This document shows, piece by piece, positions 6,593-50,938 of a stretch of DNA of 64,000 nt (position 1 is the first letter of the stretch; each line of letters begins with the position of its first letter). The notes under the pieces were generated by a model that did not search any database, was not told where the DNA came from, and worked only from the letters and a program-made list of their open reading frames with translations. This stretch comes from a virus (Duplodnaviria; Heunggongvirae; Uroviricota; Caudoviricetes), in the IMG/VR virus record IMGVR_UViG_2718218168_000001, positions 32,001-96,000 of that record, one strand, 5' to 3'. The translations under genes were made by a program, and so were the position numbers.

Positions 6593-7252
6593 CTAGTTGT
6601 CATTGCCCCCTACCAGCGGCAATAAAGCCCTGGCCATCTTATGAACCAATAGTGCATCAATAATGCCAAGCGTATGCCCCGGGTTAATGTTTAATGCCGC
6701 CTCAAGGTGACACCTTTCCAGGCCACTTTTCTCGGCTTGTTTATGATGGTCTGGCTTAATAACGTCGCCCAAAACACGGCTAATTCTTTCTCGTAATTGC
6801 TGGGTGCCAGCACACTTGATCGCTGTATCGTGGAGACGGTTAACCAGTTCGCGATAAACATGCGGCTTAATGCGGATACGTTCACCGGTGACGCCCTTTC
6901 CTGGCCCTGGCACCGAACTATCCGGAATATCCGGATAGTTGCCAGCCTCGTAAGCTACCCGCAGCCAGTGCATGAATGTTTCAGTAGACACACAACCACA
7001 GTCCACATCGATTTTTCCGCGTTGCTGTTCCAGCCACTGCTCAAAGTTCAATCTACACGTATTACTTTCATGTTGCTCTTTTTGTCTTAAGGCCAGCACC
7101 TGTTGGGCCAGTTCCAGAACGATACCGGGTGACGCTAACCTCTCAAATTCCAATAAATAGTTTGCGTCAGGATGACAAGTAGCCTCGCCTGCAAAAAATA
7201 CCAATTGCTGTAAGTATGCTGTCGTTAGAGTAGTCATTTCTTTTTGCGCCAT
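6593..7252 (-). CDS. Hypothetical protein
   Basis: 219-aa ORF, normal GC, no motif recognised. Confidence 0.5.
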   Translation of the reverse strand: MAQKEMTTLTTAYLQQLVFFAGEATCHPDANYLLEFERLASPGIVLELAQQVLALRQKEQHESNTCRLNFEQWLEQQRGKIDVDCGCVSTETFMHWLRVAYEAGNYPDIPDSSVPGPGKGVTGERIRIKPHVYRELVNRLHDTAIKCAGTQQLRERISRVLGDVIKPDHHKQAEKSGLERCHLEAALNINPGHTLGIIDALLVHKMARALLPLVGGNDN

Positions 7253-7608
7253 TTCTTTTCACATTCCTTAGTCCATTTTTCAATGTTCATTTTGGCAATA
7301 TCAGTCATTCCATCACCTAAGAAATACTTTTTCCGGTACGTCTTGCACTTAAACCACACTACAACAGCCACCAGCCAGAAAATAAAAGGCCATACAGCAA
7401 TACCAACTCCAGCCGCGATAAAGCCCAATAGCCATAAATGAAGCTCTCCAACTTCTGTTTGCGGCAATATTCTTAAAGAATTAAACAGCAGACTGAAGGA
7501 ATGGTCGTATGCATTGGCGGTATAAGACATGCAATCCATATAATTAAAGTCATAGCCTGCGGCTGCCGCCCATAATGGGCGGTCAAGAAAATGTTTTAGT
7601 GTCATCAT
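7234..7608 (-). CDS. Small membrane protein with two predicted TM helices and a lysine-rich tail (low-GC)
   Basis: 124 aa; LHLWLLGFIAAGVGIAVWPFIFWLVAVVVWF; C-terminal KKWRKKK. Confidence 0.5.
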   Translation of the reverse strand: MMTLKHFLDRPLWAAAAGYDFNYMDCMSYTANAYDHSFSLLFNSLRILPQTEVGELHLWLLGFIAAGVGIAVWPFIFWLVAVVVWFKCKTYRKKYFLGDGMTDIAKMNIEKWTKECEKKWRKKK

Positions 7609-7614
7609 ATAAAT

Positions 7615-7995
7615 TTAAGGTTCAGACCAGTTATCTTCAATAGCAATGCTTAATCTTTGTAGCCATTCTGCTAATTTCAGCATTGCTTCTCTTTCGCTTA
7701 AACCACGAGGAAAATCATCAAGCGAAATTGTTGGCTTGAAGCCCCCGTAATTATCCATTTCAACAGTCAGATTTTGCTCCAGCACGGTATTCCTTACGCG
7801 GCTATTGTGCCGAAGCAAATATACTGAACGTGATTTATTGGTTTTATGGTCAAACTGATATTCGGTAAGTATCATCTGGCTTTTGCCATGACTATTACCT
7901 CTCCACATACTTACCTCACTTAATAAAACAACTCCATACGTAGTTGATGATTTTTCCCCACGTAATATAAATATGCACTCCAGCAGAAAAACCAA
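7615..7995 (-). CDS. Hypothetical protein (low-GC), start uncertain
   Basis: 126-aa ORF; an internal Met (MWRGNSHGK...) is an alternative start; ends 7 nt before the membrane-protein gene. Confidence 0.4.
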   Translation of the reverse strand: MVFLLECIFILRGEKSSTTYGVVLLSEVSMWRGNSHGKSQMILTEYQFDHKTNKSRSVYLLRHNSRVRNTVLEQNLTVEMDNYGGFKPTISLDDFPRGLSEREAMLKLAEWLQRLSIAIEDNWSEP

Positions 7996-8086
7996 AACCT
8001 ACAATTACTGAAAAAATCAAAACATTTACTTTTGACATTATAAAATTTCTCTCGTTGCCGTAGGTGATAGCACCATAATTTCTAAT

Positions 8087-8338
8087 TTAGTGAGTTAGCA
8101 GTTCCATTTTTTCGATGATTTCCGCATGAGCATCATCGTTGTCAACACTTAACTCGTTTAATGCCTCTCGCACTACATCAACTTCTTCTGGTTGGAAGAA
8201 GTCATCTCGGTAGTCACCAAATAGAACCGAAACAAGCCTGCCACCAGCAACATCAAGATTGGCGCTAACAGGTGGCTCTTTACCATCCTCAAATTCGACT
8301 ACAAAAGTTAATTTCCCCATCGTTACCACCAGCGACAA
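8087..8338 (-). CDS. Hypothetical small acidic protein
   Basis: 83-aa ORF in the same operon direction. Confidence 0.4.
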   Translation of the reverse strand: MSLVVTMGKLTFVVEFEDGKEPPVSANLDVAGGRLVSVLFGDYRDDFFQPEEVDVVREALNELSVDNDDAHAEIIEKMELLTH

Positions 8339-8402
8339 ATTGAATACAAACCCAGTGCTGCCGCCATCACAATTCCTACCGTTGCGAATGCTTCAGGCCA
8401 GC

Positions 8403-9245
8403 TCATTGACCTGCCTCCTGGGGAGGTTCTGGTAGCAGCATCCAGAACAAGGCGTTCCCTAACCACGATAAAGTGCCGTCGCTCAACTCCACGTATTCCC
8501 CTTGCACCTGTCCTGCCATATACTCACCGTGCTTTGAATAAATTAAAATCCAATCATCTTGAGCGGGCATTCGCTCACTACAGCTTATCCAACCATCCGG
8601 AGTTACCGGATAGTTGCCATTCACAAGGTCAGCTCGAACATATAGCGTGTCATCATGGTGCTGATTGTGGCTGCACCACGTTAATTCGCTTAACTCGCCA
8701 TCTTCTGGCCATACTCCAGCTGTTTGCAGCCAGATATGGGCTGGCGCATCCTGGCAAGGTGTATTAACTGGAAACTTGTAAGTTTGGCTTACAGGTTGGC
8801 TACCCTGAAGCATGGCAGCGTGGCAGGCATACTCAACGCCCTTAACTGCATCTGCGCAGTAGTTATAGCGATTGCATTCCACTAATTTCCGTTTGAGTTT
8901 TTCAATTGCCTGCGCGACATCAGCCTGTATTACAGGAACTGGCGGAGTGGTATATAGTTTTCGGCATTTGTTTATCCAACCGGCATGGTCAGGCGTGTCT
9001 GTAAAGCGCAAATCGTTTTCGTAGCCCTCACGACTACGTTCTTTCCATTCCGTCCACGGAACACCGCTATTCCAAGTGGGGCGAGTGCAGGACTGATACA
9101 GAACAGGTTCAGCTTCCAGCGCTGCCAGAGCAATCCGTGCCAGTTCTTCCGCTTCTTCTGCTGGCAGTACAACGTTGCTACCAGGTCCGTATGTTTCGCG
9201 CCACTGCTTGATTGTCAGCAGTCGCTCTTTGGTAATAGTGGTCAT
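8403..9245 (-). CDS. DUF551-like prophage protein
   Basis: 280 aa; C-terminal DGWISCSERMP...WILIYSKHGEY resembles the DUF551 signature common in lambdoid early-region genes. Confidence 0.5.
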   Translation of the reverse strand: MTTITKERLLTIKQWRETYGPGSNVVLPAEEAEELARIALAALEAEPVLYQSCTRPTWNSGVPWTEWKERSREGYENDLRFTDTPDHAGWINKCRKLYTTPPVPVIQADVAQAIEKLKRKLVECNRYNYCADAVKGVEYACHAAMLQGSQPVSQTYKFPVNTPCQDAPAHIWLQTAGVWPEDGELSELTWCSHNQHHDDTLYVRADLVNGNYPVTPDGWISCSERMPAQDDWILIYSKHGEYMAGQVQGEYVELSDGTLSWLGNALFWMLLPEPPQEAGQ

Positions 9246-9451
9246 TTGTTAATCCTCAAAACTTTATGCCCGGGCGCAAAAGCACGCGTTTTGTCTTTGC
9301 TTATTCGCCAGCCATCCTTGCGCGCCTCTTTTGCACAACCAGACCATGACGTACCGATATACTCACCGAAGTCTGGCACTGGATATACACCTTCCGTACA
9401 CTGGCGGCAGTCACAATAGAGATGCATGGTGTAACTTGCGGCAATAGCCAT
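9242..9451 (-). CDS. Small cysteine-rich protein
   Basis: 69 aa from MAIAASYTMHLYCDCRQC...; strong SD (AAAGGAGAG) upstream; ATG 1 nt after the upstream stop. Confidence 0.5.
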   Translation of the reverse strand: MAIAASYTMHLYCDCRQCTEGVYPVPDFGEYIGTSWSGCAKEARKDGWRISKDKTRAFAPGHKVLRINK

Positions 9452-9452
9452 A

Positions 9453-10214
9453 TCACTCTCCTTTGATGCGAATGCCAGCGGCGCGTGGCACATTAACTTC
9501 CACGATGCGCACAGTTGGTTTGTACATCTCAATCGCTGTCAGCCAGTCAGCGCCGGTCATATGCTTTTCTGCATCGCCATTAGTCCATTGAACCGGCACA
9601 CCAATAGCTTTCATCGCAATTTCTATTTCCCCGGCAATGGCGCTTTTCCCGCAACCAGTAAAACCAGAGACAACGACAAGAACTTCGCCTTTGGCTGGTT
9701 TTATTTCCCGTGCTTCCAGTTCTGCAATGCGCTTCTCTGCGGCTTCCAGCTTCTCGCGCATATCGTCAACGTACTCGACCAGAGATCCGCCAGCAGGAAT
9801 TTCGCACTCCTCGACCAGTTGGAAGTAGATATCAGCTGCGGCCCGTGTGTTGCTATGCCTGGCGTCGCCTATCTCACCTTCGCGAAGAGCATCGCGTTCG
9901 GCGGTAAGATTGGCTATTTTGCTGTCTTTGCCTTCCAGCTCAACGCGCAGCCTCCCAACCGTAAGCGCAATATCCTCGTTCTCCTGGTCGCGGCGTTTGA
10001 TGTATTGCTGGTTTCTTTCCCGTTCATCCAACAATGCCAGCGCGATATCTGGCGAAAAGTGCTTCATAAAATCGTTAAGCGCATTAATTCGCTGATCGAA
10101 AGGCATTACAGGTGCTTCACCGGCAATTTTTGTTTTTTCAGCGATTTCACGAAGCTTTTGATAATCAATCTGGCTCACTGGTTGCCTCCTTTGCGGAGTT
10201 GCGCTTCGATGCAT
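9453..10214 (-). CDS. Ead/Ea22-like protein with coiled-coil and C-terminal P-loop-like motif; start uncertain
   Basis: 253 aa; central coiled coil; C-terminal VVVSGFTGCGKSAIAGE; the 40-nt overlap with the upstream ORF suggests a later start. Confidence 0.45.
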   Translation of the reverse strand: MHRSATPQRRQPVSQIDYQKLREIAEKTKIAGEAPVMPFDQRINALNDFMKHFSPDIALALLDERERNQQYIKRRDQENEDIALTVGRLRVELEGKDSKIANLTAERDALREGEIGDARHSNTRAAADIYFQLVEECEIPAGGSLVEYVDDMREKLEAAEKRIAELEAREIKPAKGEVLVVVSGFTGCGKSAIAGEIEIAMKAIGVPVQWTNGDAEKHMTGADWLTAIEMYKPTVRIVEVNVPRAAGIRIKGE

Positions 10215-43183: not shown

Positions 43184-43765
43184 ATGGCACCTATACCTTA
43201 TGGGGTTTACAGCCAGGCTGACGGTGTATCGCCATTTCTGAAAGTTACTTTAACGAACTCTCAGTACCAGGTTACCGGATATATCAGCCAGGGGGCGGCA
43301 ATGAACATGGCCCAGAATTGGGAAGCACCTTTTACTGGTATGTCCATGGGTTCTGTTGCTGGTGCCTTCAGTGGTTTTGCGCAGGTTGGTACTGAAACAA
43401 CGTCGGTGGCCCGTTGGAACAGCTTAATGGTTTGGGAGGGGGGAACACCGCCGACTTTCACGCTGCCAGTAACTTTCATCGCTTTGTTTGACCCATTCAC
43501 GGAGGTTTCAGGAGCTATCGCCGCATTGTCAGCGATGATTAGCCCGGAACTTAAAGATGCCAGTATTGGTGGTCGAATCCCGGAGCGTGTGACGCTAAAC
43601 ATTGGTCGCCGGATCAACATCATTGATGTCGCTATCCAGGACATAAGTTTCGATCTCGATGCACCCAGGGACAGCAATGGGCATTTCCTGAAAAACACCG
43701 TCAACCTCCAGTTGACCGGTTCTTCGATATATAACAGCTCCGATATTGTTCGGGCGTTCCAGTAA
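43184..43765 (+). CDS. Hypothetical structural-module protein
   Basis: 193-aa ORF. Confidence 0.45.
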   Translation: MAPIPYGVYSQADGVSPFLKVTLTNSQYQVTGYISQGAAMNMAQNWEAPFTGMSMGSVAGAFSGFAQVGTETTSVARWNSLMVWEGGTPPTFTLPVTFIALFDPFTEVSGAIAALSAMISPELKDASIGGRIPERVTLNIGRRINIIDVAIQDISFDLDAPRDSNGHFLKNTVNLQLTGSSIYNSSDIVRAFQ

Positions 43766-43776
43766 AAGGATTTTAT

Positions 43777-44286
43777 ATGGGGCACAATAACACTAAGGGA
43801 AACCGTAAATTTATTAAGGGCCGCTATACTGCCAACGCGGCCAAAGGCGAACGACTGGTATCTTCTGAATTCCAGCTCACTTTTGCAGGCCATGAAGATA
43901 TCAGCGTACTGGTTCGCACGTCGCAAATTCCTGAAATGACCCGCGAGGATGTGGAGGACTATGGTCCGAATGGTGTGAAGTTCAACCAGCACGGTCCAAT
44001 CCGTAACTCCGGGGAAATCCAGGTCCAGTGCGTGGAGACTATCGAAGGCGATATTCTTCAGTTCATTAAAGATCGCATTGCGGCGAAGGACTATGTTGAT
44101 ATCACGATGGCTGCGACCCCTGAATCCAAATCTTCCGGGGTTAACGCTGTGACAAAAGCTGCTACAACAATTGAAATGTTGGACTGCAAAATCTACAGTG
44201 ATGCAATCGACTTTAGTACCGAAGATGTGACTGCCGCTGTGCGTCCGTCACTTCGTATCGTTTACAACTGGATTGAGTGGGATTAA
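43777..44286 (+). CDS. Hypothetical structural-module protein
   Basis: 169-aa ORF followed by an intrinsic terminator. Confidence 0.45.
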   Translation: MGHNNTKGNRKFIKGRYTANAAKGERLVSSEFQLTFAGHEDISVLVRTSQIPEMTREDVEDYGPNGVKFNQHGPIRNSGEIQVQCVETIEGDILQFIKDRIAAKDYVDITMAATPESKSSGVNAVTKAATTIEMLDCKIYSDAIDFSTEDVTAAVRPSLRIVYNWIEWD

Positions 44287-44305
44287 GAGTCACCCCTTGT
44301 ATTTT

Positions 44306-44330
44306 AAAGCTCCTACGGGAGCTTTTTTGT
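44306..44330 (+). terminator. Intrinsic terminator
   Basis: aagctcc-tacg-ggagctt hairpin plus TTTTTT. Confidence 0.75.
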
Positions 44331-44369
44331 GCTTAAATTATGCCGGTATAGCGAAATTTTGAGCATATT

Positions 44370-44666
44370 ATGGAAATTGATTTTTCATACTCTCCTGAAA
44401 CGATAGAACGAAGATTCGAAATAATTGGATGCAAAACTATTTCAGAGGAGCATTATTGGATTCTCTATGATGCCAATACATGGTTATGTGCCTTAGCAGA
44501 ATGTCGGCCATCGTTATGTGCAGGGGAGGGAGGACTTCGACATAAGGTGCTGGCTACACTTGAAGTGAACACGTTACGATATTGGTGTGTCGAAATACTT
44601 AGGGATAACAAAGAATTACATTTATTATTGCTGAATAAGTGTGCGCCTCTGCGCAGGAAAGCATAA
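44370..44666 (+). CDS. Hypothetical small protein (possible moron)
   Basis: 98-aa ORF after a terminator, in an AT-rich stretch. Confidence 0.35.
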   Translation: MEIDFSYSPETIERRFEIIGCKTISEEHYWILYDANTWLCALAECRPSLCAGEGGLRHKVLATLEVNTLRYWCVEILRDNKELHLLLLNKCAPLRRKA

Positions 44667-44832
44667 GAAAACCCAACCGCCATACTGGAATTATCAGAAG
44701 AATATGTGCGGAAAGTTATAGCTAGCTATTGAAAAGCTAAAGTAGATCGGTTAGATTTACCTTACTCATCTACCATGCGTAGAAAGAGCGATCGAACCCG
44801 ATACATAGCAATATGTGTCGGGTTCAGCTTTT

Positions 44833-45312
44833 TTATGTCCCAAGTGCTCTTTTTCTGCTTTGTTTGAGTGTTCTGATTTTACTGTCATAGGTTACAACAT
44901 AGGCTGTTTTGAGAAGCCAATAGTCTCTACGTGCGGATAGCACAACAACGTAGTTTTCACACTCGTTCCAGATTACCCACTCTTCAGTTGGTCCTCGTCT
45001 TTCAGACCAACATGATATATCGCAATGGTCATAATTCCTTATCATATGCGCGATCCAGCGGATCCGCTTACACCGTTCAAGATCAGGTATTCGTTCTTCT
45101 TCTATTTTTCCCTCTGATACTAAATGCCAAAATCCGAACTCTTTCCCATCATATTCCGGTGAATAACGTAATCGAACAGGGAGACCCTTAAACGTTATAT
45201 TAGAGATTAAAATATCTTCTCTAACAACATCATATACATCGTCTATATACTCTTGCCAACTTCCATTGAAGTACAATAAATCTGGCATTTGAAGCATCAG
45301 CGAGCCTCCCAC
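44833..45312 (-). CDS. Hypothetical protein, second gene of a low-GC cassette
   Basis: 159-aa ORF (start may be an internal Met); overlaps upstream gene by 16 nt; AT-rich. Confidence 0.45.
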   Translation of the reverse strand: MGGSLMLQMPDLLYFNGSWQEYIDDVYDVVREDILISNITFKGLPVRLRYSPEYDGKEFGFWHLVSEGKIEEERIPDLERCKRIRWIAHMIRNYDHCDISCWSERRGPTEEWVIWNECENYVVVLSARRDYWLLKTAYVVTYDSKIRTLKQSRKRALGT

Positions 45313-46001
45313 ACGAAAATATTAAATTTACTTTCTGTTGGAAGAGTGCTTTTTAGTAACTCCCTGTTTGTATGTGATTTTATCCTGTTTATGACTTGGA
45401 TTTTTCCCGCGTTGCTATTCATTCCTCGATGAACGTAGCCTAACGCACCAATGAAAAGATCCGTTAGCTGCAATTGTTGCACTTCATGAGATCGTATATG
45501 TTGAATTCTGTTTATCGACTCATGATTGTAATCATAGCGATCATTGTGAAGAACTCCTCTTAATTTCTCAATTTTTTCAATACCTAAAGTATCTTTTATA
45601 TCTAGGTAGATATTGTATGTGTTGTTACTTTCTATTATGTTTTTTAAGACATAAAAAAACATCTTATAATAGAAAGTATTGTGATCTTGATGGAATCGAG
45701 CATGGTCCAGTTGCTCTTTATCAGGAACAACAACACCTCTAAAGCGCAATGCTGGGTTGCTGAAGAAGTAATCTACGACCTCTAAGTAAAATTCAACTTT
45801 GGACGCAGATACTTTAGTCCACTTGATTTCGAAATCAGGTTTTAAATTGTGTTTTAATTTTAATCCCTTGATGTCTCTAGCAATTTTTTTTGTGATAGTG
45901 CCAGGACACCAAAGCGCACCCAATACCATGACTTTATTATGATCATTTAGTAGGTGACAGGATTCATCGCAGAATACATTAAATGTTCTTCGGTTCAACA
46001 T
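45297..46001 (-). CDS. DUF3800-like protein, first gene of a low-GC cassette
   Basis: 234 aa; N-terminal FNVFCDESCH resembles the DUF3800 (y)DESG start; AT-rich. Confidence 0.45.
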   Translation of the reverse strand: MLNRRTFNVFCDESCHLLNDHNKVMVLGALWCPGTITKKIARDIKGLKLKHNLKPDFEIKWTKVSASKVEFYLEVVDYFFSNPALRFRGVVVPDKEQLDHARFHQDHNTFYYKMFFYVLKNIIESNNTYNIYLDIKDTLGIEKIEKLRGVLHNDRYDYNHESINRIQHIRSHEVQQLQLTDLFIGALGYVHRGMNSNAGKIQVINRIKSHTNRELLKSTLPTESKFNIFVWEAR

Positions 46002-46152
46002 GTTAACTCCACTTATTGTTAGGTAGAATTGTCCGTTAGTTGTTTATTAATTGCAATAATGGGACGTTCTGATTTGCTAACTACGTCATCTTACCAGGAC
46101 GCCTATGAGTTTTCCTCATGGCAAACTAGAGGTGTTGAAAGTATGCATGGTT

Positions 46153-46169
46153 ATAATTAGAGCAATCTA
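46153..46169 (-). promoter_or_regulatory. C1-operator-like site between repL and the low-GC cassette
   Basis: ataattagagcaatcta; reverse complement AGATTGCTCTAATTAT. Confidence 0.45.
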
Positions 46170-47015
46170 TCACCCTCTGAATCCTACCGGTATACCCCAT
46201 TGTTCGTTATCTTTATTTTTGGCTAATACCGCATTAAGTGCTTCGTTTACCGTCATGCAATGCGGTAGATTATCGAAGTTTGATATCCAGCCAATATCAG
46301 GAGAACGCTTGTTCTTCAGGTAAGCATATTTCCGCGCTGCCGCCTCTACTTTCTGCTTGAACTCATGTTTTTGAGCGCGTTTTTTGGATAACCGCAGATT
46401 GTCAGCCTTTGCTTTTGCCTCAGCGATCCATGAAGTCAGTTTTTTGAGGCTGGTCGTTCCGGTACCGCCGGAAACTGATCTTTTTGTTTTTTTAATTTGT
46501 GACTTCTTATTCTTTATTGCCACGTCATCCTGACAGGGGGAGGGGGTATCATTTTGACATGGGGGTGTGGATAAAAAATTAAATAAAGCCAATGTCTTAG
46601 CGAGAACAGCTTTAACCTTGGTTGCCGCTGAAGAGATCTTTAATTTGCTTTCAATCAGCGCATTTTTGGCTTGTTGTGCGAAGGCCAAAAAGGATGGTGT
46701 AAACCGGTACAGGTTAGCGCGACGTTCACGGTGATCGCCGATAACAATCTCTACAGACAGAATTCCTTTGTTTACAGCTTCACGGAATGCACGAACGACG
46801 GTTGATTGGCTATAACCAGTTTCTGCCGCGATCAGGCGGTGAGGCTTGTGAATGAAGTATTCACTGGTTGTTGCCGCGAGATTTGCACATTGCGACAGGA
46901 TATGCCCGGCGCTACGGGATAGACCGGAGTGTGTTACAAAGCAGGCCAATTCATAGCCAGAAAAAGTAAAATCGCTCATCGTTATACAGCTCAGGAAAGT
47001 GACTTTAGCCAGCAT
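46170..47015 (-). CDS. repL: Lytic replication initiator RepL
   Basis: 281 aa; HTH-like YSQSTVVRAFREAVNKGIL; directly downstream of kilA. Confidence 0.7.
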   Translation of the reverse strand: MLAKVTFLSCITMSDFTFSGYELACFVTHSGLSRSAGHILSQCANLAATTSEYFIHKPHRLIAAETGYSQSTVVRAFREAVNKGILSVEIVIGDHRERRANLYRFTPSFLAFAQQAKNALIESKLKISSAATKVKAVLAKTLALFNFLSTPPCQNDTPSPCQDDVAIKNKKSQIKKTKRSVSGGTGTTSLKKLTSWIAEAKAKADNLRLSKKRAQKHEFKQKVEAAARKYAYLKNKRSPDIGWISNFDNLPHCMTVNEALNAVLAKNKDNEQWGIPVGFRG

Positions 47016-47044
47016 TACAATGCTGGTGGTTCTTACTACGTCTG

Positions 47045-47845
47045 TTAGCGCGTTGCCGCGACAGGTACCAGCACACCAGCATCAAGCAATCGCTTCATCA
47101 GCCACTGCTGACCTTTGCCGGTTATACGAGTCGTGAAAGAAATCCTGCTTCCATTGCTTGTATCGATCACGGTTTCTTTAAGGGTGAAATACCCACGGGA
47201 TATGTATTCTTGTTTGGGGACGTTCCTGCGTTCACCGGTTGCGATCAGAATTCCGTTATCACGCAACCAGGTGAAGAGATAGTTTTGGCCCAGGCCGAGC
47301 ACTTTGGCATAGTTGCCGATTAGAACCCCGCTGGCGGTAGCAACGCGTTCGGCGAATTCGACTTTAGGTGCATCCATCAGCATTTTTTGCTCCAGCCGTT
47401 GCTTTTGCTCTGCCAGGTCAGCAGCCAAACGGAGAGCTTCTGGGAGGCTCTTCGGAATAGCAGGTTGTAATCTTCCGGCTCGATAGTCGATAAATGTCTG
47501 GTTTACCTTCAGCCGAAACGCGGGAGAAATCCAGCCTGCGTACTCCACTGCGAGCAATTCATGGGCAAAAGTGCCGCCGCCACGGCCTTCGAACGAAACT
47601 ATGCAATTCTGCATAGTTTCTTTTTCAAGCTCTTCGATGAGCTGTTTGGCTGACAGCGTTCTTAGCCATTGAGCTGGCGCTTTATGGGCACCGAGTCCGC
47701 TCGCTCTGTGTAGAGCATTAAGGTTGTAACGGCCAGCGCGGTCGGTCGTAATTTCAACACCACAAATAACAGGCAGAGTGGTTGAAGGATCGACATTTTG
47801 ATGAAGGTTTGATATATTCATATCCGCATTGAATGTTTGTTGCAT
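47045..47845 (-). CDS. kilA: KilA (KilA-N plus KilAC-type C-terminal domain)
   Basis: 266 aa; C-terminal half paralogous to the ant C-terminus (KVEFAERVATASGVLIGNYAKVLG...). Confidence 0.75.
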   Translation of the reverse strand: MQQTFNADMNISNLHQNVDPSTTLPVICGVEITTDRAGRYNLNALHRASGLGAHKAPAQWLRTLSAKQLIEELEKETMQNCIVSFEGRGGGTFAHELLAVEYAGWISPAFRLKVNQTFIDYRAGRLQPAIPKSLPEALRLAADLAEQKQRLEQKMLMDAPKVEFAERVATASGVLIGNYAKVLGLGQNYLFTWLRDNGILIATGERRNVPKQEYISRGYFTLKETVIDTSNGSRISFTTRITGKGQQWLMKRLLDAGVLVPVAATR

Positions 47846-49319: not shown

Positions 49320-49410
49320 GACGTGACGGGGTTAGCAGACTGGCGATTGTGAAACCAGCAGGCCGAAGCCTCCCCATCACGCCCCACCATAATTTGGGCG
49401 TAACGCGGTT
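49320..49410 (-). ncRNA. Putative c4-like antisense RNA region (copy 2)
   Basis: GTTAGCAG (49331-49338) is complementary to CTGCTAAAC direct repeats at 49302-49310 and 49481-49489; ends not determined. Confidence 0.35.
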
Positions 49411-49577
49411 TTACGGACACAAAAATACCGCAATATCGGATATCTGCGGCTGTCCGCACAATCATTCAGGCTGCTAAACCCGGTCGCAGAATTTGCTACG
49501 ACGGCGAAACTATAAGCCTGAACGATTAAAAGGTCAATATGATGCGAAAAGATAGCATTCACGACTTAAAAATACAA

Positions 49578-49592
49578 ATTTATTAGAGCAGA
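49578..49592 (-). promoter_or_regulatory. C1-repressor-type operator upstream of c4-icd-ant
   Basis: aatttattagagcag; reverse complement CTGCTCTAATAAATT. Confidence 0.6.
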
Positions 49593-49873
49593 TGAGTGTC
49601 GTGCAATAGAAGTATTATTTGTGATGAAAAATAATGCAGAGGGATATTGTTACTTTAAGATGGATATCAATAGTCGATACATAAATTAAGTTAGCAATAA
49701 ACTATTAACTTAAGAAATAATGCAGATGGTGAACTTGTCTCTGACTTTTCAGCTATACACAATAAGTTAGGGGTTGCTTATAAAAAGTTGATTAATTGAT
49801 ATAAGTCAATGGGAGTATTCTTGTTTACTTTCCGTTCTCGTGGTAACTTCTCGCCGGTTTTTGTTTTTCTTGG

Positions 49874-50395
49874 ATGATTCTTATGTCTAAAAAGTATACT
49901 TTATGCGCTCTTGTTGTATCTGCAATTCTTCTTTCTGGGTGTCAATCTAGCGGTGCTGATTATGCTGCCGATGTTTATGATACCGCTCAATTGAATTCGA
50001 AGCAGGAAACAAAGACAGTCAATATTATCTCTGTGCTTCCAGCTAAAGTGAAAGTTGATAATAAAGCTAATAAAGAAGCGGCACAGACATTTGGTGCGGT
50101 ACTGGGAGCTGTTGCTGGGGGCGTTGCCGGTTATAATGTTAAAGGCACATCGACACTGGGTGCTGTAGCTGGCGGTACTGGTGGTGCGGCTCTTGGTGCA
50201 GCGGCTGGTTCTTTGGTTAGTGATAAAACAATTGTTGAAGGTGTTTCACTGACTTATAAAGAAGGAACTAAGGTGTTCACTTCAACTCAAGTTGGTAAAG
50301 CATGCCAGTTTACAACGGGGCTTGCTGTGCTTATTTCAACTAAAGATAATGAAACTCGAATTCAGCCAAATGCTACTTGTCCAGAAAAGAAATAA
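49874..50395 (+). CDS. Lipoprotein with glycine-zipper region
   Basis: 173 aa; lipobox LLSGC; GAVLGAVAGGVAGY...GAVAGGTGGAALGAAAGS; AT-rich. Confidence 0.6.
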   Translation: MILMSKKYTLCALVVSAILLSGCQSSGADYAADVYDTAQLNSKQETKTVNIISVLPAKVKVDNKANKEAAQTFGAVLGAVAGGVAGYNVKGTSTLGAVAGGTGGAALGAAAGSLVSDKTIVEGVSLTYKEGTKVFTSTQVGKACQFTTGLAVLISTKDNETRIQPNATCPEKK

Positions 50396-50398
50396 TTT

Positions 50399-50938
50399 AT
50401 GAATAAAATTATTTTATTTCTAATCTTTTCTACGTTTAGTGTAGGCAATGCCTTGGCTAACTCGTTGCAAAGTCAAATTGCTGCTATTGCTCAAGCGGAA
50501 AATGAAGGGCGAGCTAAAGAGCAGCAAGCTGAGGATGCCAGAAAAGAACTTATTCGCCAACAAGCACAAGCTGAACGTATTAGAAGAGAAAAAGCAGCAT
50601 CTGCCGCTGCTGCACGCGAAAAACAGCGTGTTGCTGCAGAAAATGAACGTAGAGCAAAACGAGAAGCCGAGCTAGCAAATGACAAGAAGCGAGATCAAGC
50701 TTATGAGGATGAGCTTCGCAAGCTGCAACTCGAAAGCATGAAACTCGAACTGCAAGCAAAAGCGGCTCGTGTCCAGCGAGAAAACGATTTTATAGAGCAG
50801 GAGTTGAAGGAGAGAGCAGCTAAGACAGATGTAATTCAGTCTGAGGCTGATGCAAATAGAAATATTTCTACAGGAAGTAAAGATTTACTGCAAAGCGAAG
50901 GAAAAGCTAGAGAGAAGAAAGCTAGCAGTTGGTGGTAG
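50399..50938 (+). CDS. Secreted charged coiled-coil protein
   Basis: 179 aa; signal-peptide-like N-terminus (LFLIFSTFSVGNALA) then Lys/Arg/Glu-rich helical repeats. Confidence 0.55.
   Translation: MNKIILFLIFSTFSVGNALANSLQSQIAAIAQAENEGRAKEQQAEDARKELIRQQAQAERIRREKAASAAAAREKQRVAAENERRAKREAELANDKKRDQAYEDELRKLQLESMKLELQAKAARVQRENDFIEQELKERAAKTDVIQSEADANRNISTGSKDLLQSEGKAREKKASSWW

Follow-up and report, generated by a model that had tools for sequence, protein, structure and literature searches.

Two overlapping genes at 44833–46001, on the minus strand of a phage-plasmid, raise the question of whether they help the element to replicate, as their name in phage P1 implies, or form an acquired module of another kind. 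The window analysed here, a stretch of 64,000 nucleotides (positions 32,001 to 96,000 of the IMG/VR record IMGVR_UViG_2718218168_000001), comes from an element of the P1 type, and the two translationally coupled genes are rlfA and rlfB of phage P1, called rapA and rapB in P7. Over 44300–46200, at 100% coverage, the nucleotide identity is 99.9% to phage JL22, a phage-plasmid and the nearest relative in this region, 97.4% to P7 and 96.5% to P1, and the gene order kilA-repL-Orlf-rlfA-rlfB-pmgF-bplB is common to the window and P1. High identity and the shared slot between repL and pmgF/bplB identify the genes as orthologues of those of P1, and we saw no substantial difference between the two copies. 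The P1 record describes rlfA and rlfB as ‘possibly associated with lytic replication’, and the ‘replication-linked’ name has a positional basis only. The literature that we searched reports no phenotype or test of function for rlfA or rlfB, and papers merely list the genes as variable or non-essential.

The upstream gene, rlfA (45297–46001, minus strand), encodes a DUF3800 protein of 234 aa with an RNase HII/H2A-like fold, whose N-terminal region contains NVFCDESCHLL. The downstream gene, rlfB (44833–45297, minus strand), encodes a 154-aa partner that belongs to no Pfam or NCBIfam family, and its start codon and the rlfA stop share 1 nt. The longest open reading frame of rlfB (44833–45312, minus strand) would give 159 aa. 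However, translation almost certainly begins with the ATG at 45297, because a GGGAGG Shine-Dalgarno sequence lies 7 nt upstream, the ATG overlaps the rlfA stop codon in TGATG, and this choice agrees with both the annotated start in P1 and the beginning of the homologue alignment. A reading made earlier from the sequence alone had proposed two overlapping minus-strand genes of 234 and 159 aa, the first with an FCDES motif; the overlap, the first length and the motif are borne out, and the second protein almost certainly has 154 residues. That reading had also judged the genes by eye to be AT-richer than their flanks, and computation agrees: the GC content is 36.8% for the cassette (35.2% for rlfA and 39.1% for rlfB), as against 47.3% for the window, 48–52% for the tail genes and 45.2% for repL. 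Equally low GC is reached in just 0.64% of sliding windows of the same length. Two more low-GC islands were seen in the window, at about 6951–8370 and 49351–50720 (≤40% GC in 1.2-kb windows).

Comparison with P1-like elements that lack the cassette put the limits of homology at 44328 (left) and 46156 (right), the latter within the core of a C1-type operator, and the exchanged unit is therefore 44329–46155. This segment of 1827 bp carries pmgF, rlfB, rlfA and the promoter region, and has a GC content of 37.7% compared to 50.1% and 46.6% in its flanks. Its left edge lies at an intrinsic terminator 3′ of bplB (44306–44325, plus strand, with a T run), which confirms the terminator proposed here by the earlier reading. 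Within the segment, pmgF (44370–44666, plus strand) encodes 98 aa at 40% GC, and a hairpin with a 14-bp stem (44794–44825) separates the convergent rlfB and pmgF, 8 nt past the rlfB stop and with a T run on the plus strand. The cassette is present in about 15–19% of P1-like plasmids; PLSDB holds 679 records with bplB, 514 with repL and 97–100 with the cassette. Among complete E. coli genomes, 120 of 5426 carry it, almost always on plasmids, and rlfAB was not found in the plaque-forming P1-like phages RCS47, Ro157c2YLVW and phi456.

The commonest alternative between bplB and repL is a cassette encoding an 81-aa membrane protein with two transmembrane segments and the type I toxin hokD (L003:3880-4500; L018:927-1509), and an N-acetyltransferase, an Ail/Lom protein or IS421 were also seen there. 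The slot thus behaves as a cargo hotspot. That rlfA-rlfB-pmgF is variable and low in GC has been published (PMC9603915, PMC6906374). CRISPRi against rlfAB in P1 gave efficiencies of plating of 1.3 and 0.88, with no plating defect; we give this result little weight because the same screen also missed repL. Deviant GC, the segment's own terminators, variability among close relatives, alternative cargo, a predicted promoter, occurrence of the pair in unrelated mobile elements and, weakly, the CRISPRi data for dispensability together give good support to the acquired moron that the sequence-only reading had proposed. No linkage of pmgF to rlfAB was seen outside P1-like elements. Over 65 aa, PmgF shares 43% identity with the N-terminal third of a hypothetical protein of 198 aa in RCS47 (L002:2253-2849), whose gene has the position and orientation of pmgF; the P1 gene may be the truncated counterpart of a longer cargo gene.

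RlfA matches the Pfam family DUF3800 (PF12686) with 53.1 bits against a gathering cutoff of 21. Published work assigns DUF3800 to the RNase H-like domains and describes a DE and a QxxD motif in it (PMC7736814, PMC10910872), and both are conserved in RlfA, as D12-E13 near the N-terminus and Q178-L-T-D181 towards the C-terminus. In an alignment of homologues that are 52–87% identical and range from Enterobacterales to Bacteroidota and Nitrospirota, D12-E13 (in CDESCH), D134 and D137 (in YLDIKD) and Q178 and D181 (in QLTD) are invariant or nearly so. The candidate catalytic residues are D12, E13, D134 (or D137) and D181, so that the protein combines an RNase H fold with the four acidic active-site residues of an RNase H2-like nuclease. 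From the RNase HII/H2A fold and the complete acidic set, we predict that RlfA is a metal-dependent nuclease with RNA or RNA/DNA hybrids as its substrate. Its sequence identity to RNase HII and RNase H2A is only about 10%, and it differs from them by additional invariant Cys/His residues (CDESCH), the QxxD motif and an obligatory small partner.

RlfB gave no significant match to Pfam, NCBIfam or PDB sequences, either as a single sequence or with two profiles. It is labelled ‘replication protein’ in the P1 RefSeq record, a name for which we found no experimental basis, and ‘oxidoreductase’ by PGAP in many RefSeq plasmid records; none of these databases backs either name, and the PGAP annotation is therefore unsupported. 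The structural model (pLDDT 90.5) shows helices, a four-stranded antiparallel sheet and a C-terminal helix. Its weak resemblance to RNase toxins of the RelE/colicin-D type (BECR fold) is a lead only, since a Foldseek search of the model against the PDB returned no significant match. FWH...R..D..RC.RI.W is the invariant His/Arg motif of the family: in 39 diverse members, H58, R75 and W81 never vary, and F56, W57, R69, C76 and R78 hardly do. Clustering at 50% identity left 1788 representatives, among which no domain fusions were found, the few longer proteins having spurious-looking N-terminal extensions with no Pfam match. Two loci, one from the survey described below and one from Methylomonas found separately, have an intact rlfA followed by an rlfB with a single premature stop inside the most conserved motif, at W57 in one and near D72-R75 in the other (L014:8699-9170 and L041 downstream of 893).

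We then surveyed the contexts of 80 species-level loci that encode RlfA relatives. An RlfB-like sequence lay directly downstream in all 80, with a premature stop in rlfB in one; the pair stays together across many phyla. Mean pairwise identity over these loci was 59% for RlfA and 41% for RlfB, and the values for the two proteins are correlated (r = 0.46; Mantel, 0 of 999). Type I restriction-modification (R-M) genes shared the strand of the pair in 35 of the 80 loci and lay on the opposite strand in none. A separate classification of 34 loci placed the pair between hsdM/S and hsdR in 16, at the 3′ end of the hsd genes in 15 and just upstream of hsdR in three. Single loci had the pair beside MazE/PIN, a reverse transcriptase or a Piwi protein. 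Within Enterobacterales, a P4-like satellite carries it as cargo beside RhuM and SymE, and it also adjoins integrases of integrative elements. Recurrence both in R-M operons and in the cargo slots of mobile elements is the pattern of guilt by association with defence. The RhuM-SymE arrangement was seen in Citrobacter and in a P4-like satellite, where a RhuM-domain gene comes immediately before the DUF3800-RlfB pair and SymE after it (L005-L007, ~7988-10465); a RhuM-domain candidate, PDC-S05, has been reported to be protective (PMC12881386).

A transposon-sequencing study of Legionella pneumophila offers a further comparison. There, an integrase gene was non-essential, two of the four analyses scored the DUF3800 gene that follows it as essential, and the next two genes, both unannotated, were non-essential (PMC7811196, supplement, HL77S_00078-00081). 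The pattern is antitoxin-like for the DUF3800 gene; its link to the RlfA subfamily is a lead, and our protein search of this subfamily returned no L. pneumophila member.

Both proteins are matched strongly by the PADLOC models for the candidate system PDC-M04, RlfA by model A (2.2e-95) and RlfB by model B (1.1e-51), and the two genes are adjacent, on one strand and overlap by 1 nt. The PDC entries of PADLOC are unpublished, unvalidated candidate systems, some of which failed on testing, and the name PDC-M04 was absent from the literature searched. Databases or papers already had the genes, their low GC and the listing as PDC-M04, as well as the finding that their presence varies (PMC9603915). 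What is added here is that rlfAB of P1 is PDC-M04, that the RlfA-RlfB pair is kept together over a wide phylogenetic range, that it shows a same-strand association with type I R-M operons, and that the slot in P1-like plasmids alternates between rlfAB and a hok toxin cassette. The identity of the module and its accessory, mobile nature are secure. The earlier suggestion that the cassette might serve exclusion or abortive infection gains support, because of the PDC-M04 matches and the type I R-M linkage.

From the genomic contexts, we infer a conflict role for the module, be it defence, exclusion or addiction, as their best reading. The explanation that we prefer, to which we would give an even chance of being correct, is that rlfAB is a widespread, mobile accessory nuclease module that works in conflict and has no replication function. 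The genes in P1 would then be one copy of a horizontally mobile, tightly coupled pair lodged in the variable repL-bplB slot. The role of the pair would be defence against phages or other mobile elements, or their exclusion, and it would be built in the manner of a toxin-antitoxin or abortive-infection system, with RlfB as the growth-arresting effector and RlfA either restraining RlfB or cooperating with it. Nuclease activity, substrate, toxic partner, trigger and protective phenotype are all properties that we infer for such a module. That RlfB is the toxic partner is a guess, made from four weak points: the gene order, the weak fold match, the two nonsense alleles of rlfB beside an intact rlfA and the Legionella transposon data. 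Defence or addiction is likelier than replication because of the PDC-M04 identity, the constancy of the pair, its same-strand link with R-M genes and its alternation with hok.

The same pair could instead serve post-segregational killing, stabilising the plasmid prophage, its carrier element or an R-M operon rather than stopping phages. The slot it occupies holds hok, the classic plasmid-stabilising type I toxin, in most P1-like plasmids, the genes are coupled with the smaller and toxin-like rlfB second, the pair often lies beside other toxin-antitoxin genes and within R-M operons that are themselves addictive, and the Legionella pattern is antitoxin-like. Against this, P1 already has phd/doc, and RlfA is a conserved enzyme in which we found no DNA-binding antitoxin domain. 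We consider addiction as the main function unlikely; it overlaps heavily with the preferred explanation because many toxin-antitoxin pairs also defend. Classification as a type II toxin-antitoxin pair was rejected, as the upstream gene encodes a 234-aa enzyme-like protein without a DNA-binding domain, and a toxin-antitoxin-like logic of another type may apply.

Known systems offer partial parallels to the conflict module that we favour. Type VII retrons (reverse transcriptase plus DUF3800) and the TPR-DUF3800 genes next to Cas12a2 and Cas12a3 also use DUF3800 as an accessory or effector domain in immune loci (PMC7736814, PMC10910872, PMC13594972). The rlfAB locus differs from these in having no reverse transcriptase, CRISPR array or TPR domain, and RlfA keeps the Q of QxxD that retron-type DUF3800 lacks. 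A type VII retron was rejected for this locus, with no reverse transcriptase reading frame between bplB and kilA, and an Rfam scan of 43500–47200 at E-values up to 1 found no DUF3800-associated RNA motif or any other match. The anticodon nuclease PrrC sits inside hsd operons. PrrC/RloC and the rlfAB pair share the habit of sitting inside type I R-M loci, the latter lying between hsdM/S and hsdR in 16 of the 80 loci; however, there is no similarity in sequence or domains, and the P1 copy has no hsd neighbours. That anti-restriction proteins might trigger rlfAB, as they do PrrC, is pure conjecture.

A more specific version of the conflict role, which we regard as distinctly unlikely in all its parts together, has RlfAB as a guard module with a mechanism of a new kind. 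RlfA with its RNase HII fold would curb a RelE/colicin-D-like RlfB until a nucleic-acid cue appeared; the cue might be an RNA/DNA hybrid from the replication of an invader, or, as for PrrC, the loss of type I R-M function when anti-restriction proteins strike. Once captured by P1, the module would have come under C1-linked control and would exclude rival phages or plasmids during induction.

Regulation is the main complication for reading the cassette as a prophage-borne defence. A C1-operator-like 17-mer, ATTGCTCTAATTATAAC (46150–46166, minus strand), lies 4 nt past the repL stop and matches the C1 operator consensus at 12 of 17 positions, the five mismatches being in the right half. A consensus search allowing up to three mismatches missed it. 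Nevertheless, the site proposed earlier at the repL 3′ end is confirmed by a sequence identical to that of Orlf (formerly Op55) in the P1 annotation and by its 11-base core, which occurs five times in the window compared to 0.06 expected. About 94 bp downstream of the site lies the −35 element of a predicted sigma-70 promoter (46028–46056, minus strand; TTGCAA, 17 nt, GACAAT). It corresponds to the PrlfA prediction in the P1 record and agrees with the consensus at 8 of 12 positions, under the threshold of our promoter scan; a GGAG Shine-Dalgarno sequence for rlfA follows at 46007–46010. The genes lie downstream of the C1-controlled kilA-repL operon, from which no terminator separates them, and rlfAB was reported among the early genes of P1vir infection, induced together with early replication genes. 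The C1 operator, if working, could link expression of rlfAB to induction or lytic growth rather than to the quiescent prophage. The complication arises from these features together: the upstream operon, the missing terminator, the nearby C1 site and early-gene expression.

These features would suit a role in lytic replication, in which RlfA would process the oriL transcript or R-loop inside repL, or remove primers, and so boost replication with RlfB as a cofactor. The genes lie directly downstream of repL and oriL, RlfA has the fold of RNase HII, expression accompanies that of early replication genes, and the P1 annotators chose the name accordingly. We hold this role to be very unlikely. About 80% of P1-like plasmids whose repL is near-identical lack the cassette (about 100 plasmid records with the cassette against 514 with repL), as do plaque-forming P1-like phages, and elsewhere the pair occurs away from any RepL, in R-M operons, in a satellite and in integrative elements. 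Its deviant GC speaks for a foreign origin, and the CRISPRi result, for the little that it weighs, shows no plating defect. The earlier caution that these might be conserved replication-linked rlf genes of P1 is thus right as to the name but not as to conservation among P1-like elements.

It is equally improbable that the pair is a counter-defence or host-takeover factor of early lytic growth, degrading host or rival RNA, RNA/DNA hybrids or defence nucleic acids such as retron msDNA: the adjoining C1-type operator, co-expression with early genes, the nuclease fold of RlfA and the recurrence of DUF3800 domains beside retrons and CRISPR effectors would agree with this, but the chromosomal pair is embedded on the same strand in host R-M operons, an odd spot for an anti-defence gene, and neither protein matches a known anti-defence family.

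Phage P1 is a much-used laboratory phage in which rlfA and rlfB carry a positional name with no function attached. If the module proved to have no phenotype, the outcome would be a corrected annotation only. If, on the other hand, RlfA were a guard of RlfB, this would be the first function for DUF3800, a domain repeatedly found next to 11 orphan RNA motifs, retrons and Cas12a2/a3. As a conflict module that can be handled in E. coli, rlfAB would offer an easy model for this unexplained domain.
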